DNA of 64,000 nt, taken from the IMG/VR virus record IMGVR_UViG_3300025697_002467. One strand, written 5' to 3'. This stretch comes from a virus (taxonomy: Duplodnaviria > Heunggongvirae > Uroviricota > Caudoviricetes). Shown here piece by piece: positions 3,555 through 41,987 of the stretch. The translations under genes were made by a program, and so were the position numbers. Under the pieces are notes generated by a model. That model did not search any database. It had not been told where the DNA came from and was given only the letters and a program-made list of their open reading frames with translations. The first letter of the stretch is position 1; the number at the start of each line of letters is the position of its first letter.

Positions 3555-4364
3555 TCAGTCATCGTCTTCATCCTTTAAGTGTTCCTTCATACGGGAGTCA
3601 ACATCTGCTGCATCTCCCATTACAGAAGGTTTTTGATCTTCTGCCCATTTGTAGACCTGTTTTGTGTCTGGCATCTTCTGAGTTTTGAACATATTATTGA
3701 CAACAGCATTCGGGCAAAGAGGCATTAGTCCTCGAATGGTCGGGAGTGAGTTGCACCCCATTGAAACACCTTTGTGTTTTCCATCCTGAATATCTTTCAT
3801 GTGTTCGTCCCAGTTAGAGAGGGTCTCCAGATTATAGTTATTGGTTGCCAGCTCGTAGTTTGAATACTGTTTCTGGCCTGTGATTTCTTTAAGACACCAA
3901 TCAGGAACTACTACAACAGAACCTTCAGGATCATTTTTATCTTCAGGGTCTGTGTATTCCAACTCAGCAATACGAAGACCTTTGTAACGATCCTCATAAA
4001 GGTCTACTTCAAAGACATGGTATGAAACCAGATTCATGATACAATACCGTACCTTATGAATTACAGCATCACCACAACGATCTATTAATGAATAAGCATC
4101 ATCAAGACTGATAGGGAATTCAAACTCATCCCTAGTAGTTCCGGCAGCATCTAAGAAATCACTCTTTAGGGTTAGATAGGCCATATCTTTTATCAGAGGG
4201 TGTCTGTTTTTAAGCTCTTTTTGAACACGTACTCGAACAACCATACCAGAGAATTTCCCAAGATAACCTTGAATGATATCATAAACATCCTCAGCTTTCT
4301 TAAGTAGGTCGTTTTGATAATAACTGGCACTAACTAACCAACGGCGTTCTATTTCTTTTGACAT
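3555..4364 (-). CDS. CYTH-domain protein (triphosphate tunnel metalloenzyme family) with a C-terminal extension
   Basis: N-terminal EIERRWLV matches the CYTH ExExK signature (EIERKFLV). Confidence 0.55.
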   Translation of the reverse strand: MSKEIERRWLVSASYYQNDLLKKAEDVYDIIQGYLGKFSGMVVRVRVQKELKNRHPLIKDMAYLTLKSDFLDAAGTTRDEFEFPISLDDAYSLIDRCGDAVIHKVRYCIMNLVSYHVFEVDLYEDRYKGLRIAELEYTDPEDKNDPEGSVVVVPDWCLKEITGQKQYSNYELATNNYNLETLSNWDEHMKDIQDGKHKGVSMGCNSLPTIRGLMPLCPNAVVNNMFKTQKMPDTKQVYKWAEDQKPSVMGDAADVDSRMKEHLKDEDDD

Positions 4365-6298: not shown

Positions 6299-7168
6299 TT
6301 ATAAAATGGTTCCGGGAGAAGGAATCGAACCCTCGTCTGATGAACCAAAATCATCCGTCTTGCCGTTAGACGATCCCGGAATGTATCCTTTTTTTACCCA
6401 TTTTCTTATTGAAGTATTACTAACTCCCAACATACTAGCAACCTCCAACTGGGTTTTTTCTTTTAGCAGTATTAAAAGTTCTTGAAAAGATATATCTACT
6501 GGGATAGCTTTTGTTTTCATTATGCAAAAGAAACATAACCCAGATTTACCATGTTTTGTGATTGCACGGCCACATTTTTTACAATTATATGCCTTTTTTC
6601 GTTTGGAAGCCCCACAAAAAGTAGGTTGCTGGCTGTTGCAATTAGGGCATAGTAGACGTAAATTTTCTAATCTGTGATCGTCTCGGACTCCGTTTATATG
6701 ATCCAAAACTAGAACTAATGGTTTCTTGTCCCACATAGGGAGCAACCCGCAAAGGACACATTTGTTTTTTAGTATTCCTTCGTGTAAAAGACGTTTTTTC
6801 AAATGACCCCTACTGTAAGTAGAGTGTTCCACCATTATTTTTTCAAGTGGTCTTTTCTGTGCTTGTCTGCGTTCCTTTAGTTTCCCACAGTTCTTTTTTA
6901 AACTGTTTCGTACAAACTCATTGTAATCTAAACCCATTTCTTGCATTCTGTTTTTTACAGTATAGTGGTTCCCCCCAACCCCTTTCAACCCAAAAAACTC
7001 TAATACTTCTCTAATGGAATCACTATTGTTTAGAAGTTCGATGAATTTGTCGTCTTCTAATTTCCATATAGGGCTTCTTCGTTTTCTAGTGTGCATACAT
7101 AAACCTCTGTTATTAATAGTTAGAACCTGTACTATTATCAATGGTATAGGTTTTTTAGAATAAGTCAA
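6299..7168 (-). CDS. HNH homing endonuclease with a C-terminal HTH-like domain
   Basis: LDHINGVRDDHRLENLRLLCPNCNSQ HNH core. It is a paralog of the 24065..24778 gene. The last ~25 codons read through tRNA-Gln in antisense. Confidence 0.8.
   Translation of the reverse strand: MTYSKKPIPLIIVQVLTINNRGLCMHTRKRRSPIWKLEDDKFIELLNNSDSIREVLEFFGLKGVGGNHYTVKNRMQEMGLDYNEFVRNSLKKNCGKLKERRQAQKRPLEKIMVEHSTYSRGHLKKRLLHEGILKNKCVLCGLLPMWDKKPLVLVLDHINGVRDDHRLENLRLLCPNCNSQQPTFCGASKRKKAYNCKKCGRAITKHGKSGLCFFCIMKTKAIPVDISFQELLILLKEKTQLEVASMLGVSNTSIRKWVKKGYIPGSSNGKTDDFGSSDEGSIPSPGTIL
6307..6380 (-). tRNA. tRNA-Gln (anticodon TTG)
   Basis: Acceptor TCCGGGA/TCCCGGA with a U1:A72 pair typical of tRNA-Gln, anticodon stem GATGA/TCATC, loop TTTTGGT, short D-arm. 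Confidence 0.7.
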
Positions 7169-7326
7169 GGTTTAATTACCTGCTGGACGACACCCGAATA
7201 ATTATCGGTTATACCACATAATATGAGTGTAAGATTTATCTACCTTACCACTCGTAACATCCGAGGGTTTAACCACTCAAGAGTGACAGGTTTATTATCA
7301 TCCTTAGACATTGGCATCTCCTTGTA

Positions 7327-7359
7327 ATACAACAACCCACGAAAATCAAAAACTAAGCC
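7327..7359 (-). promoter_or_regulatory. conserved phage promoter-like motif (plus-strand text CAACAACCCAC-N9-AAACTAAGCC), copy 1
   Basis: One of at least 13 copies of the same bipartite element with an invariant 9-nt spacer; intergenic between the divergent HNH genes. Confidence 0.45.
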
Positions 7360-7399
7360 GTTATTACCAGCTTGGTATTCTTATAGGGTATAATACCCT

Positions 7400-7774
7400 A
7401 TGAAAGGAAATGTCATGCCTAATCCAAATATTCAATGTTCAGCTTGTGGGAAACCAATCTACAGGTCTCCTCGTCAGATAGCCAAATCAAAAACAGGTCT
7501 TTTCTACTGTTGTAAAGCTCATCAGAAGAAATGGCGTTTCTACAAGATGACAGCATATCGGAAATTGGCTTTCGATAATTTCCCTCATAAATGTGATGAA
7601 TGTGGTTATGATTTCATGGAGATCCTTGAAGTTCATCATGTGGATTTCAACCACAGTAACGACCAGCTCGACAATCTTCGGATCTTATGCCCGAACTGTC
7701 ATCGGGAAATCCATTGGTACGGACGTGGAGAAGCTGCTATGGAAGCAGCTTATGAACCTGACTGGGAAGATTGA
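7400..7774 (+). CDS. HNH endonuclease
   Basis: HHVDFNHSNDQLDNLRILCPNCHREIH plus an N-terminal CxxC...CC zinc finger. It is divergent from the 6299..7168 HNH gene. Confidence 0.8.
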   Translation: MKGNVMPNPNIQCSACGKPIYRSPRQIAKSKTGLFYCCKAHQKKWRFYKMTAYRKLAFDNFPHKCDECGYDFMEILEVHHVDFNHSNDQLDNLRILCPNCHREIHWYGRGEAAMEAAYEPDWED

Positions 7775-8011
7775 CGGTTCTTCAACAACCTAACTAATCT
7801 CGTCCGATACATCCAAGGTATATAGGATTTTAATATTGATGGCCCATACGTAACAGGTTGTAACCCTACCAAAGGTTTTGCTTCCAGGCCATTGGTACCT
7901 CTAAGATGGGAGAGTCACTTGCTTTAAGTTTCTTCAATATCTCCCGGACAATTTCATTCCTGTGATGCTCTGGACCACATATCAATACCATTTTCGGATC
8001 AGGGTCGTCCA

Positions 8012-8227
8012 TTACATATCCTTAAATCGGGTAGCAGCCAGTAACCATCCTGCTGCTATTGTGGAACTCATCCACCCTATTACCCAAGCCCAAGGGATTC
8101 CTTGAGAGGGGTTTTCAACAAACCCGTAAACAATGTCAGCAAATACAAGGATAAGTGATACGATAACAAGCACCAAACCAAACACCCAGCTATTCTTAGT
8201 TGGTGGGTTATATTTTGGAGTTCCCAT
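8012..8227 (-). CDS. small membrane protein
   Basis: Two predicted transmembrane helices in 71 aa. Confidence 0.4.
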   Translation of the reverse strand: MGTPKYNPPTKNSWVFGLVLVIVSLILVFADIVYGFVENPSQGIPWAWVIGWMSSTIAAGWLLAATRFKDM

Positions 8228-8239
8228 GACAGTTTCCTT

Positions 8240-8638
8240 TCAAATACAAGATAGCCCAACGTATGCAGTCAAGGACAAAGTGCTTCGATTCCATTCCACT
8301 TTGTGCATCCATACAGTAATAATACCCTCAAAATCCTTGTTTTCTCTCAGAGCTGTGTCCTCTAGTACGGCAACACGCTCTGCAATCCAGAACCCAAGTT
8401 CTTGATACTGCTTTAATAAAGCTGTATCATCCCGAACTTTTGCTGTATAGGACAACCGTGTTAAAGGAACAATAACATGTTCCTTGGTTGGTTTAAGCAA
8501 CAAAACATTTTCACCACCAGCCCCGATTATGAGGGGCTTCTCTTTAGTCTGTGGTTTAGTCGGTTGTTTTACTGCAAAGTCTGCTCCGTTGTAATCATAT
8601 GGGATTACGTCAGTTACTGTTTTGGTTTCAATGTGCAT
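8240..8638 (-). CDS. hypothetical protein
   Basis: ORF of 132 aa ending just before a tRNA. Confidence 0.5.
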   Translation of the reverse strand: MHIETKTVTDVIPYDYNGADFAVKQPTKPQTKEKPLIIGAGGENVLLLKPTKEHVIVPLTRLSYTAKVRDDTALLKQYQELGFWIAERVAVLEDTALRENKDFEGIITVWMHKVEWNRSTLSLTAYVGLSCI

Positions 8639-8656
8639 AACATTTCCTTTTAAAAA

Positions 8657-8732
8657 TGGTGGAGCTTGTCGGGCTCGAACCGACCACCTTCTGCGTGCAA
8701 GGCAGACGCTCTTCCAGATGAGCTAAAGCCCC
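8657..8732 (-). tRNA. tRNA-Ala (anticodon TGC)
   Basis: Acceptor GGGGCTT/AAGCTCC carries the G3:U70 alanine identity pair; anticodon loop CTTGCAC; encoded CCA. Confidence 0.8.
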
Positions 8733-8942
8733 GAATTACCAATTCATTCTTTGTAACATTTCCAAATGAAGCTGTAGGTTCCCAGCTACCCGACGTGCCT
8801 TCTGTAACTCGACGGTCATCTGTTTAGCGGATTTGGTAAATCCTTTGTCGTCATATTTACAAAGTTTGTATCTGTACATCTCAACAATATCATCCTGATG
8901 AGCTATATTTTTTTTCAGTTTCTTGGATCAGATTATCTACGT

Positions 8943-12545: not shown

Positions 12546-12632
12546 TACGTTTCTCCTTACAGAGGGTTAAATGGTAGCACTGAAAATATTCAAAAATCAA
12601 TATTCGTTAAATTGTTATCTCCTTAGTAGGAG

Positions 12633-13328
12633 GTGTTGTTTATGTTACCCTTATTTACTGACGAAGAATTTGAAAAAGCTAAGTCCAGAGAAAAACTCCC
12701 ACTGAAATGTAAGCATTGCGGGAAAACTTTTTATCAAACTAAGAATCAAATTCAAGTTGGGTATTCCCCCAAGTATCATACAAAATGGGAATTCTGCTCT
12801 CCTTCCTGTATGGGTTCTTATCGGTATAAAGGTCACCGTATTGATTTTAACTGTGAACAATGTAGGAAATTATCCAGTAAGTTAAAATCTGCATATAAAA
12901 GAACAAAACATCATTTCTGTTCAAAATCTTGTTCAGCTACTTATCATAACCAAAGAAAACAAACAGGAACTCGGAGATCAAAATTTGAAGTCTGGGTTGA
13001 AAAACAACTGGTCTCCTTGTATCCAAATCTTGAGTTCCATTTTAACAAGAAAGACACCATTCAATCAGAACTAGATATCTACATCCCCTCTCTCAAGCTG
13101 GCTTTTGAGATAAATGGGGTTTTTCATTATGAACCTATCTTTGGACAAGATAAACTTGATAAGATTCAAAAAAATGAAAAAGGTAAATTTGCTGCCTGTA
13201 TTGAAAAGAACATCAGTCTTTGTATTATTGACGTTAGTACTTTAAGCTACTTCAAGCCTAAAAAAGCTCAGAAGTTCCTTGACATAATTACTAATATCAT
13301 TGATCAAGCTATCAGCCTGGATTCATAA
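12633..13328 (+). CDS. putative homing-type endonuclease: N-terminal zinc finger plus Vsr/DUF559-like PD-(D/E)xK nuclease domain (paralog 1)
   Basis: CxxC...CxxC...HHFCSxSC zinc-finger region. The C-terminal SELDIYIPSLKLAFEINGVFH matches the D...(I/V)E(I/V)DGxxH core of Vsr/DUF559 nucleases. About 75% identical to the 15665..16357 gene, with a conserved upstream region. Confidence 0.55.
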   Translation: MLFMLPLFTDEEFEKAKSREKLPLKCKHCGKTFYQTKNQIQVGYSPKYHTKWEFCSPSCMGSYRYKGHRIDFNCEQCRKLSSKLKSAYKRTKHHFCSKSCSATYHNQRKQTGTRRSKFEVWVEKQLVSLYPNLEFHFNKKDTIQSELDIYIPSLKLAFEINGVFHYEPIFGQDKLDKIQKNEKGKFAACIEKNISLCIIDVSTLSYFKPKKAQKFLDIITNIIDQAISLDS

Positions 13329-13375
13329 TCCAGTTTCCATCCAATGCCTCGTGGAGGCTGCTTGACATCATTGGA

Positions 13376-13448
13376 CAGCGGTGGCCGGATTCGAACCGAC
13401 GACCTGATGGGTATGAGCCACCCGAGCTGTCCTCTGCTCTACACCGCA
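13376..13448 (-). tRNA. tRNA with CAT anticodon (third CAT tRNA; Met or Ile2)
   Basis: D-arm TAGAGCAGAGGACAGCTC, anticodon stem GGTGG/CCATC, loop CTCATAC, T-arm GTCGGTTCGAATCCGGC. The acceptor has a 1:72 T:T mismatch and CCA is not encoded. Confidence 0.55.
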
Positions 13449-13464
13449 AAAAAAGTTTTTCTCA

Positions 13465-13497
13465 ATACAACAACCCACGACTTTTCAAAACTAAGCC
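13465..13497 (-). promoter_or_regulatory. conserved promoter-like motif, copy 2
   Basis: Lies between gmk and the third CAT tRNA; same motif and spacer. Confidence 0.45.
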
Positions 13498-14051
13498 GTG
13501 TTTTTTATTATTCGGTATAAATCTTGTACTGTTTTTTCAATATCAACATTAATCAACTGATAGTCATATGTCTCAGCATCTTTGATTTCTTCTAATGCTC
13601 GGTTTAATCGTATTTGAATCACATCTTCAGTATCAGAACCTCTACCCCGAAGACGTTTTTCCATCTCATCCTTAGAAGGAGGTAACAAAAAGATTGTAGT
13701 AGCTTCAGGGAGTTTTGCTTTGACAGTTTCTTTTCCCTGAGTATCAATTACAAGGATTGCTCCGTCTCCGCAATCCCAAACAGTCTCCACATCAGACATT
13801 AAAGTCCCATAAGATTGACCGTGGACTGTGGCATACTCAAGGAATTTGTTTGACTTAACTAAGATATTAAAAGAAAATTCTGTTAAAAACTGATAGTCAA
13901 TACCATCTAATTCACCTTTACGAGGTTTTCTAGTGGTACAGGTTTTAACTTGTCTCCAGCCAGCATTAGAATATCTTTGGAGAAACCGATCCACTACGGT
14001 TGTTTTTCCAACTCCTGACGGTGCTGACAATATAACTAAATCTTTCGGCAT
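13491..14051 (-). CDS. gmk: guanylate kinase
   Basis: P-loop SAPSGVGKTT, plus TTRKPRKGELDGIDYQF and the remaining guanylate-kinase signatures. Confidence 0.85.
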   Translation of the reverse strand: MPKDLVILSAPSGVGKTTVVDRFLQRYSNAGWRQVKTCTTRKPRKGELDGIDYQFLTEFSFNILVKSNKFLEYATVHGQSYGTLMSDVETVWDCGDGAILVIDTQGKETVKAKLPEATTIFLLPPSKDEMEKRLRGRGSDTEDVIQIRLNRALEEIKDAETYDYQLINVDIEKTVQDLYRIIKNTA

Positions 14052-14204
14052 TCAATTTATCCAATCTTATTCAGATGGCTGATTTTCGTAACGATGGCTG
14101 AGGTCGAATCAAGTTCATCCATATCAGGGATGAGCTTCAATCCATAGGATTGCTGCTTCTAATGATGTTGATTTAAACGGGTTAATAATCATAATGGTTC
14201 TCTT

Positions 14205-14242
14205 TCTTACCTCAACAACCCACAAAAAAGAGAAACTAAGCC
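14205..14242 (-). promoter_or_regulatory. conserved promoter-like motif, copy 3
   Basis: Lies between tRNA-Gly(CCC) and gmk. Confidence 0.45.
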
Positions 14243-14251
14243 AAAAATAAA

Positions 14252-14327
14252 TGGAGCGGGAGACGGGACTCGAACCCGTGGCATCTACCTTGGGAAGGTA
14301 GTACTCTACCAACTGAGTTACACCCGC
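14252..14327 (-). tRNA. tRNA-Gly (anticodon CCC)
   Basis: Acceptor GCGGGTG/CTCCCGC, anticodon stem CTACC/GGTAG, loop TTCCCAA, encoded CCA. Confidence 0.75.
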
Positions 14328-14334
14328 GTTTTTA

Positions 14335-14724
14335 TTAAGCTTTGTTCAGGTAATCAGCAACTTTTTGAAGGTTACTTAAGAATCGGCCACCGTTTCGTTC
14401 AACCATCTCACCGACAGCTTGAAGGCTTGTTTTAGCTTCTTTACTGTAAGTAGCTGTTTTACTTGGGATATAGCAGAATACGGTTTTCTCTGGCCGTTTG
14501 TTGGAATCATCGACGACTTCGGCTATTGAATACACACCCTTCATATCCGGGGTGATGACATACAAGCAGAAATCACATTCCTCACGTTCCCTCAGTTCCG
14601 TTCTCTTGGCTGTTTCATCCCAGTTCTCTACGACAGGGTCAAAGAAATCAATGGTTAGTAATTGGATGAGTTCTTCTCTCCATGTTGTTTCAGCACAGGT
14701 ACCACCTAAAAACACTCGTTTCAT
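14335..14724 (-). CDS. nucleoside 2-deoxyribosyltransferase-like protein
   Basis: N-terminal VFLGG plus a conserved acidic core resemble the Rcl/deoxyribosyltransferase fold; the call is weak. Confidence 0.35.
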   Translation of the reverse strand: MKRVFLGGTCAETTWREELIQLLTIDFFDPVVENWDETAKRTELREREECDFCLYVITPDMKGVYSIAEVVDDSNKRPEKTVFCYIPSKTATYSKEAKTSLQAVGEMVERNGGRFLSNLQKVADYLNKA

Positions 14725-14780
14725 TTGGGGTTCTCTTTTTCATCAAGGTTAAAAAAAAATGGAGCTGGGTCTTAAAGATC

Positions 14781-14960
14781 CTATTTTTTTTCTGCTGTAA
14801 GTGATGTGGGGCTGAAGGTTCCTTCAAGAAGGTCTTTTGCCTTAAACCAAAGGCAAAAGAAATTTCCATTTTTGTCTTTTTCAGATATTGTCATCATAGG
14901 ACCGCCTGATTTTAATTCAACTACATCCCCTATTTTCAATTCTTGGTTGTCAGTACTCAT
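14781..14960 (-). CDS. DUF2158-like small protein (59 aa; absent from the ORF track)
   Basis: MSTDNQELKIGDVVELKSGGPMMTISEK... matches the KxGDxVxLKSGGPxMTV signature of the DUF2158/YodC family. Confidence 0.5.
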   Translation of the reverse strand: MSTDNQELKIGDVVELKSGGPMMTISEKDKNGNFFCLWFKAKDLLEGTFSPTSLTAEKK

Positions 14961-15028
14961 AGCATCTCACTTTCATTGTAAAGGGTTTTTCTGATAGCAA
15001 CTATCATACTATACCCAAAGAATAAAAA

Positions 15029-15104
15029 TGGAGCAGATAACGGGGTACGATCCCGTAGCCTTCGGATTGGCAACCCGATGCTCTACCAGTTGAGCTATAT
15101 CTGC
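15029..15104 (-). tRNA. tRNA-Gly (anticodon GCC)
   Basis: Acceptor GCAGATA/TATCTGC, anticodon loop TTGCCAA, encoded CCA. Confidence 0.8.
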
Positions 15105-15114
15105 ATTATTACTA

Positions 15115-15190
15115 TGGATGAGGTGGAAAGGTTTGAACTTTCGACATTCGGATTCAGAGACCGATGCTCTACCAACTGAGCTACACCTCA
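15115..15190 (-). tRNA. tRNA-Gln (anticodon CTG)
   Basis: U1:A72 acceptor, canonical D-arm TAGCTCAGTTGGTAGAGC, anticodon loop CTCTGAA. There is one U:U mismatch at the base of the anticodon stem. Confidence 0.65.
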
Positions 15191-15201
15191 ATAATTATAA
15201 A

Positions 15202-15278
15202 TGGTACATCTGACAGGACTCGAACCTGTGGTCCCTGGTTTCGTAGACCAGTGCTTTATCCATCTAAGCTACAGATGC
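15202..15278 (-). tRNA. tRNA-Arg (anticodon ACG)
   Basis: Acceptor GCATCTG/CAGATGT, anticodon stem CTGGT/ACCAG, loop CTACGAA, encoded CCA. Confidence 0.8.
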
Positions 15279-15285
15279 TTAATTG

Positions 15286-15585
15286 TTAGAGTAAGGAAAG
15301 TCTTCGGAAAATTTCTCCGGTATGCACGGTGGCCAGAGCAGTTACTTGGTCACCAATATCAGGTTCCCGGAACACCTTGAAAGGGATATCGTTCCCTTCC
15401 AATCGTCTCCTCCAGGTTTTCAGTTGCCTTCGGCCACTGACTCCCAAGATGATCATAGTTCCGTTCTTCCACTTTGTTTTGGGTCCTCTCAGAAGCCACT
15501 CAGCTACGGCATGGCCGGACTGAACAACTTGCTGGGACATCGGTAAGTCCCTACGGACTAAGACGTATAATTTTTGTTCTTCCAT
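15286..15585 (-). CDS. peptidyl-tRNA hydrolase PTH2-like protein
   Basis: YVLVRRDLPMSQQVVQSGHAVAEW resembles the PTH2 core (vvRtDL...GK.aAQ..HA). Confidence 0.45.
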   Translation of the reverse strand: MEEQKLYVLVRRDLPMSQQVVQSGHAVAEWLLRGPKTKWKNGTMIILGVSGRRQLKTWRRRLEGNDIPFKVFREPDIGDQVTALATVHTGEIFRRLSLL

Positions 15586-15664
15586 TAGGAACTCCTATAA
15601 ATATTGGTACGTGATACTGGGATTTAATTTCAATATTCATTAAATTGCCATCTCCTTATAGGAG

Positions 15665-16357
15665 GTGTTGATTATGATCCCTTTATATACCCCAGAAGAA
15701 TTCGAGAATGCTAAGTCCAGAGAGAAACTCCCCATCAAATGTAAACGCTGTGGAAAAACATTTTATAAGACCAAACATGTTGTGTATATGACATTCTCAA
15801 AGACATCTACCACAAATGATTTCTGTAGCAGATTTTGTAGTTCTAAATATCTTCATGAAAGCCGCTGTGTTGATTTTGACTGTGAGCAATGTGGAAAACA
15901 CACCAGTAATATCTTATCTGAATTTAATAGAAACAAACACCATTTCTGTTCTCGGTCTTGCTCTGCTACCTATTATAACCAAAGGAAACAAACAGGAATC
16001 CGAAGGTCAAAATTTGAAGTCTGGGTTGAAGAACAGTTGGTCTCCTTGTACCCAAATCTTGAATTTCACTTTAATAGGAAAGATACAATCCAATCGGAAC
16101 TTGATATTTATATCCCATCTCTTAAATTAGCTTTTGAGATAAATGGTATTTTCCATTATGAACCCATCTTTGGTCAAGATAAACTTGACCGAACTCAAAA
16201 GAATGAAAAAGGAAAGTTTGCAGCTTGTTTTGAAAAGAACATTAGCCTTTGTATAATTGATATTAGCACTTTAAATTATTTTAAACCAAAAAAGGCTCAA
16301 AAGTTCCTTGATATTATTACTACTATCATTGATCAAACTCTTAGCCTGGAGTCTTAA
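15665..16357 (+). CDS. putative homing-type endonuclease: zinc finger plus Vsr/DUF559-like nuclease (paralog 2)
   Basis: Paralog of the 12633..13328 gene with the same SELDIYIPSLKLAFEINGIFH core and a near-identical RBS region (ccatctccttataggaggtgttgattatg). Confidence 0.55.
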   Translation: MLIMIPLYTPEEFENAKSREKLPIKCKRCGKTFYKTKHVVYMTFSKTSTTNDFCSRFCSSKYLHESRCVDFDCEQCGKHTSNILSEFNRNKHHFCSRSCSATYYNQRKQTGIRRSKFEVWVEEQLVSLYPNLEFHFNRKDTIQSELDIYIPSLKLAFEINGIFHYEPIFGQDKLDRTQKNEKGKFAACFEKNISLCIIDISTLNYFKPKKAQKFLDIITTIIDQTLSLES

Positions 16358-16374
16358 TCACGCATGATTTTAAA

Positions 16375-16449
16375 TGGTACGGGAGGAGGGTTTCGAACCC
16401 CCAGCTTCTGCCTTGTAGGGACAGATTTCTACCATTGAATTACTCCCGC
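16375..16449 (-). tRNA. tRNA-Val (anticodon TAC), tentative
   Basis: Acceptor GCGGGAG/CTCCCGT, anticodon stem CTGTC/GGCAG, loop CCTACAA with an unusual C33, T-arm GGGGGTTCGAAACCCTC, encoded CCA. Confidence 0.6.
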
Positions 16450-18753: not shown

Positions 18754-18837
18754 TGGCGGAAGAGACAGGAGTCGAACCTGCTAATGTTTTACCACCGACG
18801 GTTTTCAAGACCGCTTCCCACCGTTAGGCTCCCTTCC
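18754..18837 (-). tRNA. tRNA-Ser (anticodon TGA), type II with a long variable arm
   Basis: Acceptor GGAAGGG/CTCTTCC, anticodon stem GCGGT/ACCGT, loop CTTGAAA, a roughly 18-nt variable arm, encoded CCA. Confidence 0.75.
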
Positions 18838-22600: not shown

Positions 22601-23395
22601 TGTGACCTCCTTTTTAAAGGTTTCACAACATGACGGACCTCCTTCCTTGGTTAAAGATACTGAGCTGTAGGCCAAAAATACCCACACCATCTAATAGATG
22701 CCTTCACTTAGGCAAAGGTACTCAGTAAGTCATTCAGTATATTATGCCGAGCTATGAGTCATGAACTCATCAACCAATCTTTAAGTAAAACACACTCCCA
22801 AAGCTTAACTGAGAAGCTGATCAGCACTTGATACAGCTCGTAGGCAGCTACCTACAATGAATTACCAAACCAGATTAACCGCCCCTTACAGGAACAGGGA
22901 CTCTCGACATAATACACCGAACAGTTTAAATTATCAACCCTTAGCAGGGATTGAACCTGCATTCTCCACTATACGTGGCATCCTACCGTTAGAAGATAAG
23001 AGTTAGATGTGCAATCCCCTAAACAATCAAAGCCTTTCCTAGGATGCTCTTCTTTAATCTAGGTTCTTACAATTATCAAAAAACCGGTGGGTAACAGACA
23101 ACCGTGAAAGGATTGTTACTTCCTATCTCGGCAAAGAGACAGATGAGTACCTTATGGTTGATGCCTTTAGTGAGGTTGGACTAGCTTTGCAGAGCATACC
23201 AACTGAACTAATGCAGAGGTCTGAAACCCTAATTACCTTATTCAATATCCTATCAGGAAATGCAGTTCCAGACAGTTAGATTTGAACCAACGTCCTCCTG
23301 CACTCTGGCAGGTGCTCTACCAGACTGAGCTACATCCAGATTTGCATGACCTGATACGATATTGAATTGCTATTTAGTTTTCAATGAACGTCTTT

Positions 23396-23989: not shown

Positions 23990-24065
23990 TGGTGGGACTG
24001 GGGCGGCTCGAACGCCCTACTTACGAATTAAAAGTTCGTTGCTCTACCTGTTGAGCTACAGTCCC
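23990..24065 (-). tRNA. tRNA-Lys (anticodon TTT)
   Basis: Fully canonical cloverleaf: acceptor GGGACTG/CAGTCCC, anticodon loop CTTTTAA, encoded CCA. Confidence 0.85.
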
Positions 24066-24778
24066 TAATGGTTTCTTAGGTGTTTCCGAATGGCATTATC
24101 AGAAACCCCAAGTTTTTTTGCTACTTGTGTCATAGGCATACTGTTTACTAACACCATCAAGTCTTTATAGGATGGCCATTCTATTTTAGTGGGCCTTACC
24201 CTTGACTTTTCTGCACAAATTTTACATTGTTGTGAAGTATGGAACTTTACTCTTCCACAAGAACAAATAGTTTTATCTGATTGAGGTTTTCGGTATTTAT
24301 TACGTCCTTTATAAGTAGGGAGTTGGGAATCACAATGAGGGCATATAATTCTTAAATTTTCTATCCTGTTATCAGAGCTATCCCCATTTATATGGTCTAA
24401 GTGTAAGATTAAAGGCTGACCTTTCCAGATTGGCTCCTGCCCACATAAGGAACATACATTATTTAAGAGTTTCTTTGACAACAACCGATGTTTTAAATTA
24501 TATGTTGATGTGTTTGGTGAATTAGAAACCAGTATCTCTGATAGTTTCCTTTTTTTATGATACCTACTAATATTATTTGATAAATGTGATACATCAACAC
24601 CATCATTAAGTGCTCTAGTTAATAATGTCATCCTGTTTGAACCTACAGGGCGTAACCCACATCTAGTGAGGGCTTCAGACATTGTTTTAGATACTTGGAT
24701 AATATCTCTAAATTCATCAATTGTTTTTTCATAAATAATACTAGGCATTTGAACCTCCATTCTTAGTGCTTTACACAC
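24065..24778 (-). CDS. HNH homing endonuclease with a C-terminal HTH-like domain
   Basis: LDHINGDSSDNRIENLRIICPHCDSQ HNH core; paralog of the 6299..7168 gene. Its stop codon abuts the tRNA-Lys 5' end. Confidence 0.8.
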   Translation of the reverse strand: MCKALRMEVQMPSIIYEKTIDEFRDIIQVSKTMSEALTRCGLRPVGSNRMTLLTRALNDGVDVSHLSNNISRYHKKRKLSEILVSNSPNTSTYNLKHRLLSKKLLNNVCSLCGQEPIWKGQPLILHLDHINGDSSDNRIENLRIICPHCDSQLPTYKGRNKYRKPQSDKTICSCGRVKFHTSQQCKICAEKSRVRPTKIEWPSYKDLMVLVNSMPMTQVAKKLGVSDNAIRKHLRNH

Positions 24779-40731: not shown

Positions 40732-41577
40732 TTAGGCCAGGAAGTCCACCGTAGTGGAAAGTTTCATACCTTTAGCAACCATGTCTTTAACGAATGCATC
40801 ACCGAGGAAATCAAAACCAGGCACGTTTGATGAGGCATCTGTCAACAGAGTGATTTTCTGGATGTACTTCGGGTCACTAAAACTGTCAGCAATATCACGT
40901 CCAGAGTTAGCCAAGCAATGGCTGAGGGCTTCACCCGAAAGGGCAATGATGTCAGCTTCTTCCAGAGTCTGGATCAGGCCAGTGTTGATCTGAGTTGTAG
41001 GATCATCAGGATCTGGCACTTGAGCTTTAACAGCACCAAAATGCTCGGTGAAGATGTTGGAACCTTTAGTAACATAGTTAGTTACTGCAATCTGAGCTTC
41101 CCATTCGTGGATAGCATCCAGCAGTTCAGGAACGATACAAGCACCCCAACTACCGATCAAGCAATGAACTGGCCAGATGCAATGTGGGTAACGGCCTGTG
41201 GCATCCAGATCTTCCAAGTATTTAGTAACTTTTGGAAGGAAACTGAACTTGACTGTGGTGTATTCCTCAGTCGTCGGGATTTTTTGACCAGTGGCATCCA
41301 TATCACACTTGACGATTTTACCATTGTCAAGGCCAAGAATAGTGAAGGGGTCAGGAGCAGCACCATCACTGACACGTTTCCACATCGTGGGGTGGCTGAT
41401 GTCCAGATAATGGTGACTATCCAGAGTAACGTGGATATCGTCCAGTTTACCTTTGGTACGTTGAATCATGGTTGCCAGACGTTTCATATCTTCGTCTGCA
41501 CCTGGTACGGCCAAGGTTCCTTTTTTGGGGTGACAGAAATCGTTCTGCGGGTCAATGATAAGCAATTGAATGTTCAT
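40732..41577 (-). CDS. pncA: nicotinamidase/isochorismatase-family hydrolase (PncA-like)
   Basis: LLIIDPQNDFCHPKKGTLAVPGADE matches the PncA start (DxQxDF...GGxLAV); Cys/Lys/Asp triad context. Confidence 0.7.
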   Translation of the reverse strand: MNIQLLIIDPQNDFCHPKKGTLAVPGADEDMKRLATMIQRTKGKLDDIHVTLDSHHYLDISHPTMWKRVSDGAAPDPFTILGLDNGKIVKCDMDATGQKIPTTEEYTTVKFSFLPKVTKYLEDLDATGRYPHCIWPVHCLIGSWGACIVPELLDAIHEWEAQIAVTNYVTKGSNIFTEHFGAVKAQVPDPDDPTTQINTGLIQTLEEADIIALSGEALSHCLANSGRDIADSFSDPKYIQKITLLTDASSNVPGFDFLGDAFVKDMVAKGMKLSTTVDFLA

Positions 41578-41987
41578 GAGTTATCCTTTCGGGATAAAAT
41601 TGAAATTGAAGGATTAAGTTTTCCTTCTAAAATATCGTCAGCTAATGTAGAATTTAGAGATTCATCACGGATTCTTTGTGTACGTGCCTCCCTTTTCTTT
41701 TTTTCTTCCATTTGTTCGGTATAGGTATCATGAAACTGTTTATGATTATCCAGTTTCTCATCGGTTTCGTGAACGAGTGTCAAGAAAACATGATCCCCGT
41801 AATCCTCATTATGGATTTCCAAATCAATATCAACAAGACCCACTGAGGGAAACTTGCTGGGTGCAAAATCATAAATATCCACGATACTATCCACACCTTC
41901 AGGGATTATAACCGTGTATCGGTATTTTTTTGAGTGGCCAACCTGGACTTCCCGTTTGTGATATTCTTCGTTGTAATCACACATCAT
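41574..41987 (-). CDS. hypothetical protein
   Basis: ORF of 137 aa, acidic. Confidence 0.5.
   Translation of the reverse strand: MMCDYNEEYHKREVQVGHSKKYRYTVIIPEGVDSIVDIYDFAPSKFPSVGLVDIDLEIHNEDYGDHVFLTLVHETDEKLDNHKQFHDTYTEQMEEKKKREARTQRIRDESLNSTLADDILEGKLNPSISILSRKDNS

Follow-up and report, generated by a model that had tools for sequence, protein, structure and literature searches.

Two similar genes lie on the plus strand within a tRNA array of a 402-kb phage, each antisense to a tRNA gene and lying against its 3′ end, and the locus raises the question of what these genes are and why they stand at tRNA ends. The window analysed here is a 64-kb stretch of that genome (64,000 nt). The best explanation of the whole, to which we assign a probability of about 0.8, is that the two genes belong to selfish homing cassettes of the EDxHD class placed at tRNA 3′ ends, of which copy A carries a predicted self-cleaving ribozyme on the tRNA strand.

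Two old paralogues in a phage tRNA array

Both plus-strand open reading frames proposed by a previous sequence-only reading of this DNA were recovered. Their likely ATG starts are at 12642 and 15674, and the GTG starts chosen earlier (12633 and 15665) add 3 residues to each protein. The genes discussed are as follows.

12642..13328, plus strand: putative homing endonuclease gene A, 228 aa; two FCS/MYM-type zinc fingers and an EDxHD/Vsr-like nuclease domain (predicted)
15674..16357, plus strand: putative homing endonuclease gene B, paralogue of A, 227 aa
7400-7774, plus strand: HNH endonuclease gene (Pfam HNH 28.2 bits, cutoff 21.4)

Proteins A and B share 170/228 identities (75%, E 1e-129), in line with the earlier estimate of about 75%. 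The two ORFs have reached saturation at synonymous sites (dS ~1.7), and A and B are therefore old paralogues; dN/dS is 0.09 overall, 0.027 in the nuclease domain and 0.185 in the zinc fingers. The segment between them holds, as had been described, tRNA genes (five: Met, Gly-ccc, Gly-gcc, Gln and Arg), gmk and small ORFs. The first 45 kb had been said to hold no plus-strand genes other than A and B, which is incorrect, since the HNH gene and other plus-strand ORFs, such as 40918-41724, also lie there. The 64-kb window contains no further copy of the gene; a third paralogue of the same genome lies outside it, about 29 kb away, at a tRNA-Thr.

No near-identical DNA was found among known phages, and searching 50,697 phage records at the protein level gave a single weak partial match, so that no annotated relative could be used. 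At least 2,796 database clusters belong to the family, almost all of them without a name or labelled 'hypothetical', and it ranges over huge phages and cyanobacterial tRNA arrays. It is uniform across very different phages (~55% identity, 222-240 aa), and in cultured Nostoc, Microcoleus, Kamptonema and Microseira its members are embedded in arrays of 19-27 tRNA genes.

Zinc fingers joined to a predicted Vsr-like nuclease domain

The multi-Cys N-terminal region noted earlier contains 8 invariant Cys arranged as 2 x (CxxC...CxxxC). Pfam zf-FCS matches this region with 25.6 bits, and a profile match was obtained to the MYM finger of ZMYM5 (E 0.0012). The nuclease core motif was also found as described (ELDIYIP...AFE(I/L)NG(I/V)FHYEP). 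From this motif a Vsr/DUF559-type nuclease had been proposed, and the likeness holds at the level of fold only: a test for an EDxHD, I-Bth0305I-type fold was positive, with a Vsr-like fold predicted for the catalytic domain, whereas neither Pfam Vsr (PF03852) nor DUF559 (PF04480) was listed even at E up to 10. An NCBIfam search of the proteins returned nothing. PDB searches with the single sequence and with a profile gave zinc-finger and spurious repeat matches only, and thus the nuclease relationship is visible by fold alone.

Across 47 sequences the candidate catalytic residues E116, D145, N158 and H162 do not vary, and position 179 holds either D or E. In an alignment that is non-significant (E 0.18), hhalign pairs E116, D145, N158, H162 and 179 with Vsr E25, D51, H64, H69 and D97; these Vsr-pairing residues agree with the active-site residues listed in PMC3239194. 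No match was found to a GIY-YIG catalytic domain of the SegB type. Since NUMOD and helix-turn-helix N-terminal modules are absent and the two zinc fingers stand in their place, the proteins are classed as a variant and not as a plain EDxHD member. Taken together, these results support A and B as free-standing homing endonuclease genes of the EDxHD (Vsr-like) class, in which the FCS-type zinc-finger pair is the putative DNA-binding part. Nicking in the tRNA region, offered earlier as an alternative, may be the chemical step of homing.

Cassettes bounded by tRNA positions 54-73

Each gene is the only gene of its own cassette of about 0.8 kb, cassette A at tRNA-Met and cassette B at tRNA-Val. The following elements bound them.

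12572..12594, minus strand: left repeat of cassette A, a decayed tRNA-Met 3′ end (CCA + positions 73-54)
13376..13448, minus strand: tRNA-Met (CAU), initiator-like, with a U1-U72 mismatch and no encoded CCA
15605..15627, minus strand: left repeat of cassette B, a decayed tRNA-Val 3′ end (CCA + positions 73-54), read from sequence
16375..16449, minus strand: tRNA-Val (UAC), CCA encoded, separated by 17 nt from the gene B stop codon

At the flank of each cassette stands a second copy of tRNA positions 54-73, which is decayed in the window and perfect (20/20), with the same layout, in other family members. The left repeat of cassette A, delimited against the alleles of relatives L019, L100 and L101 that lack the endonuclease gene, reads TGG-T-AGCACTG-AAAAT-ATTCAAA on the plus strand and is followed by the native downstream flank; it agrees with the functional copy (13376-13395) at 11/20 positions. 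In the relatives lacking the gene, tRNA-Met ends ...GCU-A-CCA. The left repeat of cassette B matches 16375-16397 at 15/23 positions, the first 7 nt (TGGTACG) being identical. Across the family, a convergent tRNA lies within 130 nt at 40/71 unique loci. The T-arm signature was present at 34/71 unique loci compared to 10% of random positions, and a 54-73 repeat with at least 16/20 identity at 9/34 loci compared to 0.04% of controls.

A predicted ribozyme on the tRNA strand

Between the end of tRNA-Met and ORF A, on the tRNA strand, lies a predicted ribozyme that extends into gene A, covering its stop codon and final ~9 codons.

13300..13376, minus strand: HDV-like ('theta'-type) self-cleaving ribozyme (predicted), copy A (Rfam, own model R1, covariation)
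13376-13370 with 13345-13339, minus strand: P1
13366-13360 with 13309-13303, minus strand: P2
13358-13356 with 13348-13346, minus strand: P3
13333-13327 with 13323-13317, minus strand: P4
13376 and 13315, minus strand: G1 and predicted catalytic C
16329..16350, minus strand: ribozyme remnant, copy B; J4/2 and the P2 3′ strand (GGCUAAGAGUUUGAUCAA) only, inside the coding sequence

In a local scan, Rfam RF02682 gave the window ribozyme 26.4 bits (E 0.0018), under the gathering score of 44, and the ribozymes of L001 (39.4) and L067 (40.0) also scored under 44 bits; the call is therefore based on covariation and on our own model R1. R1 scored the window ribozyme, which is among its 17 training sequences, at 60.1 bits (E 1.6e-10), the sole match in 64 kb. 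Among 20 distinct homologues, 95.9% of cells were paired compared to 75% when shuffled, and compensatory change was seen in 16/19 pairs. Among them are pseudoknots P2 and P1.1, which formed no part of the model and played no role in building the alignment. In the window copy all pairs of the nested double pseudoknot P1 / P1.1 / P2 / P3 (+P4) are standard, the predicted catalytic C13315 stands at the start of J4/2 within GG-C-UGAUA, and G13376 pairs with U13339, the G-U wobble that closes P1. The corresponding family pair 1:38 is G-U in 11, A-U in 6 and G-C in 3 of the 20 homologues. We had first interpreted the conserved stretch downstream of the stop codon as a tRNA-like minihelix that serves RNase P as a substrate, and dropped this when Rfam and the covariation of P2 and P1.1 showed an HDV-like fold.

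The predicted cleavage site is at the tRNA end, G1 (13376) being the last position of the Rfam tRNA match 13376-13448. G1 comes immediately after the discriminator in L067 and L001. In copy A it coincides with the discriminator position, and a cut there would shorten the tRNA by one nucleotide. The remnant in copy B is missing the 5′ 55 model positions; the third paralogue has an intact ribozyme whose matching part is identical to it. Copy A is a complete cassette. In copy B the 5′ two-thirds of the ribozyme have been lost, and its tRNA retains the CCA. In a sample chosen ribozyme-first, about 15/18 such ribozymes had an endonuclease gene as neighbour, with four endonuclease families represented; about three quarters of sampled family members had no ribozyme.

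A leader conserved between diverged copies

12595..12641, plus strand: leader of cassette A, with conserved left end AATCAATATTCGTTAAATTG; aligned with copy B and the third paralogue
12616-12635, plus strand: 8-bp hairpin of leader A, burying the Shine-Dalgarno GGAGG; predicted fold -10.5 kcal/mol, z -3.0
15628..15673, plus strand: leader of cassette B; hairpin 15649-15667 over the Shine-Dalgarno sequence, -11.4 kcal/mol, z -2.2

The near-identity of the two leaders, noted earlier over 40 bp, extends over ~45 nt and includes an inverted repeat, CTCCTTA(G)TAGGAG, that spans the Shine-Dalgarno sequence. Since the ORFs are saturated at synonymous sites while the leader is conserved, this similarity is neither chance nor the trace of a recent duplication. 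A sigma-70 promoter scan upstream of both genes gave nothing above shuffle expectation. In AT-rich relatives, TATTTATA is conserved 10-15 nt upstream of the ATG.

Gain and loss of the genes

The presence/absence test supported the homing-endonuclease reading: L019, L100 and L101 have the same tRNA-Met without copy A. L019, which carries copy B, joins window position 12578 straight to 13377. No empty allele was found for copy B, for which a metagenome scan with gmk returned four loci only. The second family copy of L005 is missing from L007, where the last 45 nt of the ORF are retained and at least the 5′ half of the ribozyme is detectable; with these 45 nt and a different tRNA-Trp allele, L007 is a deletion derivative and was rejected as a clean empty site. 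Empty alleles, flanking repeats and remnants of lost copies are signatures of the gene's own gain and loss.

Alternative explanations

These signatures bear on an alternative in which the proteins are domesticated or dual-use competition weapons that cut the tRNA arrays of co-infecting relatives (marker exclusion), thereby favouring inheritance of the resident tRNA region, instead of mainly copying themselves. T4 SegB acts exactly so for the T4 tRNA region (PMC2330249), and the strong purifying selection on A and B and the unusual uniformity of the family fit such a role. However, the traces of gene gain and loss speak for self-copying, and one cut would serve both ends, so that the two ideas are not truly exclusive; as the main account we regard it as improbable. 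The sequence-only reading, for its part, saw the genes as duplicated around a tRNA island that they bracket, and A and B might then be the ends of a composite unit moving the tRNA/gmk island as a block. They do share an orientation and a leader and flank a 2.3-kb segment. This is contradicted by L019, which has copy B and a rearranged island without copy A, and by the saturated dS, the tRNA-derived repeats that each copy has of its own and the third copy standing alone. The copies are old, separate cassettes, and each belongs to a different tRNA 3′ end; a composite unit is the least credible of the readings weighed.

An RNA-acting protein, a tRNA-maturation factor kept beside tRNAs for its function, could also be imagined, since RNA binding or processing is carried out by some Vsr-like domains (RAP / FASTK-type). 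Enzymes acting on DNA are, however, the better structural matches, and a processing factor would not be expected to lie antisense to the tRNA, to be missing from close relatives that retain the same tRNA, to occur as several divergent copies within a genome with a different tRNA beside each, or to be flanked by target duplications; we consider this very unlikely.

Proposed mechanism and its meaning

Under the homing-cassette explanation, the nuclease would cut a cassette-free tRNA allele and recombinational repair would copy the cassette in. We infer the T-arm as the cut region because the repeat boundary lies sharply at T54 and T4 SegB offers a precedent, and the cut site itself is placed provisionally from the repeat boundaries. 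A cut at 53|54 would leave the recipient's own 54-73 segment as the outer repeat, which would give recent insertions perfect repeats and leave decayed ones in the window. The cassette-bearing allele would be immune because the cassette splits the site, and since the functional tRNA keeps an intact T-arm in that allele, recognition would have to reach past position 73. The tRNA operon transcript would run through the cassette in antisense, so that the ribozyme could sever itself exactly at the tRNA 3′ end, and the freed tRNA would be usable after CCA addition. Insertion would then be nearly harmless, as a self-splicing intron makes it for an intron-borne endonuclease. The leader hairpin may restrain translation of a potentially toxic nuclease. 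For the first origin of the exact 54-73 duplication the candidates weighed were a staggered 20-nt cut like that of a transposon, excision followed by re-ligation, and template switching at the T-loop; I-Bth0305I leaves overhangs of 2 nt only, compared to an exact 20-nt duplication at a new tRNA species.

In a wider reading, to which we give an even chance, theta/HDV-like ribozymes at phage tRNA 3′ ends are the RNA half of widespread composite selfish cassettes and not free-standing maturation devices. Endonucleases of at least four families (EDxHD-zinc finger, HNH_3, EndoVII-like and GIY-YIG) would insert in tRNA genes with a replacement 54-73 segment and a tRNA-trimming ribozyme, solo ribozymes would be relics of decayed endonuclease genes, and the cassettes would be a main force on the tRNA arrays of huge phages and cyanobacteria. 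The homing-cassette explanation proposes a role for a large unannotated protein family and offers an evolutionary reason for theta ribozymes at tRNA 3′ ends, namely that endonuclease insertion in a tRNA operon is made harmless, the same bargain as that of self-splicing introns, struck through one cut and a 20-nt gene repair. The 'hypothetical proteins' of tRNA arrays and the odd tRNA 3′ fragments beside them become readable as cassette parts. If the compact two-zinc-finger module recognises a feature of tRNA genes, it would be a new DNA-recognition architecture for the homing endonuclease toolbox. New here are the predicted copy A ribozyme on the opposite strand abutting the tRNA end, the copy B remnant and the ribozyme-endonuclease association in the ribozyme-first sample; we did not find described the pairing of a homing endonuclease gene with an opposite-strand self-cleaving RNA at a tRNA end. 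Neither the antisense ribozyme nor the 54-73 duplication had been noticed in the sequence-only reading.

Comparison with known systems

The EDxHD (Vsr-like) homing endonucleases are represented by I-Bth0305I and include the free-standing phage enzyme Hef (PMC3239194). The window proteins differ from them in having two FCS/MYM-type zinc fingers instead of NUMOD/helix-turn-helix motifs, in being encoded antisense at tRNA 3′ ends and not between protein genes or within introns or inteins, and in a sequence-profile similarity that is undetectable; the partner RNA is a predicted HDV-like ribozyme and not a group I intron. T4 SegB is a GIY-YIG homing endonuclease of the T4 tRNA gene cluster that recognises GGTTCRANTCC in tRNA genes (PMC2330249), and a term search of that paper found neither a ribozyme nor a 54-73 target duplication for SegB. 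Like SegB, the window genes encode free-standing endonucleases in a phage tRNA array and are missing from close relatives, and their target may likewise be the conserved T-arm motif. The nuclease folds are unrelated, and the resemblance is functional only.

Theta ribozymes are minimal HDV-like ribozymes adjoining phage tRNA 3′ ends, which PMC10879173 regards as tRNA-maturation elements; the word 'endonuclease' is absent from its main text. The window ribozyme resembles them in its P1, P1.1, P2, P3 and short P4, in the catalytic C in J4/2, and in a predicted cleavage site at the tRNA 3′ end of tRNAs mostly without encoded CCA; some partners are suppressor tRNAs (L022, L043). It differs in lying inside a repeat-bounded endonuclease cassette, where it overlaps the last codons of the endonuclease, and in belonging to a phage that is not a gut phage and has a strong Shine-Dalgarno sequence.

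An HDV-like ribozyme is also found at the 5′ junction of R2 retrotransposons, and group I introns partner homing endonucleases. As in those systems, a selfish insert in an RNA gene would cost less because its ribozyme restores the host RNA or sets it free from the co-transcript. Unlike with group I introns, there is no splicing: a single cut would set the tRNA 3′ end, and the duplicated tRNA segment restores the gene in DNA. Unlike in R2, there is no reverse transcriptase. Cyanobacterial long tRNA arrays (L-arrays) have linked endonuclease genes, with an HNH gene upstream of the arrays, and the genes embedded in them remain hypothetical proteins in PMC8421152. In contrast to that upstream HNH gene, members of the window family sit within the arrays.

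Genomic setting of the two putative endonuclease genes

The window corresponds to positions 47,017-111,016 of the metagenomic contig ena:ERZ27315476:k141_864834 (402,136 bp); its G+C content is 41%, and its first 27 kb hold 28 tRNA genes, every one on the minus strand. About 17-26 kb upstream of the window on the same contig, locus L001 (L numbers denote the loci compared) carries a tmRNA with the tag ANTELAIAA (3562-3915) and a threonyl-tRNA synthetase gene (6900-8858), the latter next to three tRNA-Thr genes and a third paralogue of the endonuclease. The tRNA set, tmRNA and threonyl-tRNA synthetase in one contig of this size fit the profile of a 'huge phage'.

Features of the window
12642-13328, plus strand: copy A, 228 aa, stop codon 43 nt from tRNA-Met
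15674-16357, plus strand: copy B, 227 aa, stop codon 17 nt from tRNA-Val
7400-7774, plus strand: HNH endonuclease gene, 124 aa, Pfam HNH 28.2 bits
24065-24778, minus strand: ORF with an HNH motif (LHLDHINGDSSDNRIENLRIICPHCD), 237 aa, weak precomputed HNH_3 match
18758-18837 and 23265-23340, minus strand: two odd tRNA-like genes

The two ORFs described from sequence alone are genuine, and the coordinates listed follow their likeliest ATG starts. Copies A and B share 170 identical residues of 228, and the 64-kb window contains no additional family copy; the third paralogue (72% identity) is located some 29 kb upstream in the same contig, on the plus strand amid minus-strand genes. The statement that A and B are the only plus-strand genes in the first 45 kb was wrong, since the HNH gene at 7400-7774 is also on that strand. 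It is flanked in the tRNA array by tRNA-Gln (6307-6380) and tRNA-Ala (8657-8732), and is probably a second kind of homing endonuclease there. The ORF at 24065-24778 lies between tRNA-Pro(cgg) and tRNA-Lys(ttt), with its 3' end touching the 5' end of tRNA-Lys, and no ribozyme was found beside it. One of the two tRNA-like genes is a sub-threshold tRNA-Sec-like Rfam match (39.3 bits, cutoff 47), and for the other, called by ARAGORN, the anticodon is undetermined.

A zinc-finger family with candidate Vsr-like residues

Pfam recognised a sole domain in the window proteins, an FCS/MYM-type zinc finger; neither the Vsr nor the DUF559 profile, to which the genes had been likened, matched them. Partial PHROGs matches group them with 'HNH/homing endonuclease' families. 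Among 5.8 billion protein clusters searched, at least 2,796 are relatives, of which the best-scoring are 220-263 aa long, about 50-60% identical and almost all unnamed or 'hypothetical', many of them on contigs of 200-444 kb. In an alignment of 47 relatives, eight cysteines forming two CxxC...CxxxC modules are invariant, as are E116, D145, E156, N158, G159, H162 and N178, and an AlphaFold model from this alignment has a mean pLDDT of 85. A profile alignment to Vsr, non-significant alone (E 0.18), places E116, D145, N158, H162 and D/E179 opposite E25, D51, H64, H69 and D97. The published active-site residues of I-Bth0305I/Vsr are D196/D51, N208/H64, H213/H69 and D222/D97 (PMC3239194).

Comparison of copy A with copy B gives a dN/dS of 0.09 over the whole gene (0.027 for the nuclease domain, 0.185 for the zinc-finger half) and a dS of about 1.7, which is saturated. 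The low dN/dS and saturated dS show that both copies are old, intact and under selection. The zinc-finger (DNA-binding) halves diverged most, as would be expected if each copy recognised its own site.

Insertion at tRNA 3' ends

The related phage at L019, 83-96% identical to the window in DNA, shares the Band_7 gene, tRNA-Met and gmk with it and lacks copy A: its sequence runs from window position 12578 straight into 13377, which provides the presence/absence difference expected of a mobile gene in the sequence-only reading. Its protein at the orthologous place is identical to copy B. In the more distant relatives L100 and L101, gmk is followed by tRNA-Met without an endonuclease gene, and in all three phages tRNA-Met ends in ...GCU-A-CCA and then a U-rich stretch. 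L019 also has a response-regulator/GGDEF gene (1744-2934) between tRNA-Met and gmk, where the window has nothing; the tRNA island is a gene-turnover hotspot. Elsewhere, a 444-kb phage (L005) carries two family members 1.4 kb apart, the second of which is gone except for its last 45 nt in L007, 97% identical to L005.

In every copy examined, the stop codon faces the 3' end of a minus-strand tRNA, which is tRNA-Thr for the third paralogue and tRNA-Phe and tRNA-Ser for the L005 pair. The family was sampled at 71 non-identical loci, taken from IMG/VR, the window and two related contigs. A convergent tRNA was called at most 130 nt from the stop in 40 of them, and a strict T-arm signature was present in 34, compared to 10% of random positions in the same tRNA-rich loci; several loci without a called tRNA still show uncalled tRNA-like ends. 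Taken together, these results support copies A and B as independent endonuclease cassettes at tRNA 3' ends. The endonuclease part of the earlier interpretation is thereby supported and sharpened, whereas its island bracketed by two genes gives way to separate cassettes.

Cassette borders

Before the leader, 45-70 nt ahead of the ATG, the final 20 nt of the adjacent tRNA occur a second time, and the limits of this outer repeat are exact: T54 in the T-loop at one end and the discriminator N73 at the other.

Outer repeats
Perfect, 20/20: L022, L043, L049, L094, L095
19/20: L001 (third paralogue, same phage), L026, L027, L067, L082
Decayed, window: copy A, 12575-12594, 11/20; copy B, 15605-15627, 15/23

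In a test of 34 loci, 9 had a repeat of at least 16/20, compared to 0.04% of cross-locus controls. In phages with CCA-encoding tRNAs, the outer copy retains CCA and the native flank, and the functional tRNA is often without CCA. The repeat borders define the order of the cassette as outer repeat, leader, ORF, optional ribozyme, and inner repeat within the intact tRNA. If the cut fell at 53|54, the donor would bring a new 54-73 together with the cassette, and the recipient's own 54-73 would stay as the outer repeat after each homing event. Judged from the repeats themselves, such a cut would fit perfect and decayed copies alike.

A leader hairpin that buries the Shine-Dalgarno sequence

The reported leader similarity was borne out: the leader is conserved between copies whose ORFs are saturated at synonymous sites, which indicates that it is functional. 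It folds into an 8-bp hairpin burying GGAGG, with -10.5, -11.4 and -12.3 kcal/mol in the three paralogues (z -2.2 to -3.6), and relatives that use a Shine-Dalgarno sequence have anti-Shine-Dalgarno hairpins different in sequence and equivalent in form. Phage T4 limits the expression of intron endonucleases by occluding the ribosome-binding site, and by analogy we infer that the hairpin may limit endonuclease expression here.

In AT-rich loci (L022, L043, L078/L084 and others), leaders lack a Shine-Dalgarno sequence and have TATTTATA 10-15 nt before the ATG; several partner tRNAs there have a CUA anticodon (amber suppressor; 'Pyl' in ARAGORN). The suppressor tRNAs and these leaders fit recoded phages of Bacteroidota-like hosts.

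A predicted antisense HDV-like ribozyme within the cassette

At about one quarter of the family's loci, stop codon and tRNA are separated by a conserved stretch of 45-60 nt that folds better when read on the tRNA strand. Three loci gave matches to the HDV-like ribozyme model of Rfam, RF02682, all spanning the full model and scoring under the gathering threshold of 44.

Matches to RF02682
L067, minus strand: 40.0 bits, E 1.6e-6
L001, minus strand: 39.4 bits, E 1.8e-6
Window 13304-13376, minus strand: 26.4 bits, E 0.0018

A covariance model was trained on 17 of these sequences, including that of the window, and gave a single match in the 64 kb scanned (13300-13376, 60 bits, E 1.6e-10). Across 20 distinct ribozymes, standard pairs occupy 95.9% of cells, compared to 75% when shuffled and 28-52% with partners slid, and 16 of 19 pairs show compensatory change, including pseudoknot helices P2 and P1.1, which were absent from the model that produced the alignment. 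The G1-U wobble typical of the HDV-like class is present, and cleavage is predicted 5' of G1, immediately at the end of the tRNA. P4, the catalytic C (window 13315) and the 3' strand of P2 fall within the last codons of the endonuclease gene, and in most relatives the catalytic C complements the G of the TAG stop codon. It follows that the ribozyme belongs to the repeat-bounded cassette; the empty alleles (L019, L100, L101) have no ribozyme. Of the ribozyme, copy B retains just 18 nt at the 3' end, within its coding sequence, and its tRNA-Val has CCA.

Ribozyme-model matches without an attached endonuclease gene, all on the minus strand, occur at L005 9160-9235, where the match fills the 87-nt gap from tRNA-Leu(cag) to tRNA-Ser(gct), L059 4383-4455 and L029 2234-2295. 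They may be left over from lost cassettes, or they may be independent elements.

Survey starting from the ribozyme

IMG/VR was also searched with a 15-nt ribozyme core, independently of any protein. This gave 18 distinct model-confirmed ribozymes, and all 18 abut a tRNA 3' end.

Gene beyond the ribozyme (strand relative to the tRNA)
Window's endonuclease family, antisense: 7/18, including one ribozyme sequence with one of two instances at a contig end
HNH_3 endonuclease, same strand: 4/18, one of the four disrupted; among them L163 4198-4701, L172 4347-4835, L159 1268-1759
Zinc finger plus EndoVII/HNH-like, same strand: 4/18 (L178 3931-4482, L156, L181, L175)
GIY-YIG/NUMOD3, same strand, one tRNA further on: 1/18 (L169 5455-6072)
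No endonuclease: 3/18

Thus about 15 of 18 are linked to an endonuclease (16 with the GIY-YIG gene counted, 15 without). At their N-termini the EndoVII-like proteins have an FCS-like zinc finger similar to the fingers of the window proteins. In L156, the endonuclease ORF is followed directly by a 15/20 copy of the tRNA end. L173, which belongs to the three with no endonuclease gene, has a 16/20 copy 56 nt past the ribozyme and resembles a cassette from which the gene has been lost. These results, from a small sample of one ribozyme subclass, suggest that the ribozyme is an accessory common to tRNA-targeting endonuclease cassettes.

Cyanobacterial relatives and comparison with known systems

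Family members are present not only on huge-phage contigs but also in cultured filamentous cyanobacteria (Nostoc, Microcoleus, Kamptonema, Microseira, Tolypothrix), and at most of these loci the member lies inside an array of 19-27 tRNA genes, converging on a tRNA. These are the L-arrays, horizontally spreading cyanobacterial tRNA arrays described in 2021, whose embedded genes were left as hypothetical (PMC8421152). Many cyanobacterial homologues align to query residues 71-225 only, covering one zinc finger and the nuclease (L116, L119, L120-L132), although their ORFs are about 230 aa, so their N-terminal recognition module is unlike that of the phage proteins.

Endonuclease genes in tRNA clusters are already known, as is the nuclease class itself; the zinc-finger architecture and the 54-73 duplication are new variants. 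Full-text literature searches found no paper on phages that joins HDV-like ribozymes with homing endonucleases and tRNAs. The ribozymes of the family correspond to the 'theta ribozymes' reported in 2024 beside phage tRNAs, in a paper that covers 1,753 of them and whose main text does not contain the word endonuclease (PMC10879173). Theta ribozymes are known singly, and their joining with an endonuclease in one repeat-bounded cassette, as read from sequence, is a new variant.
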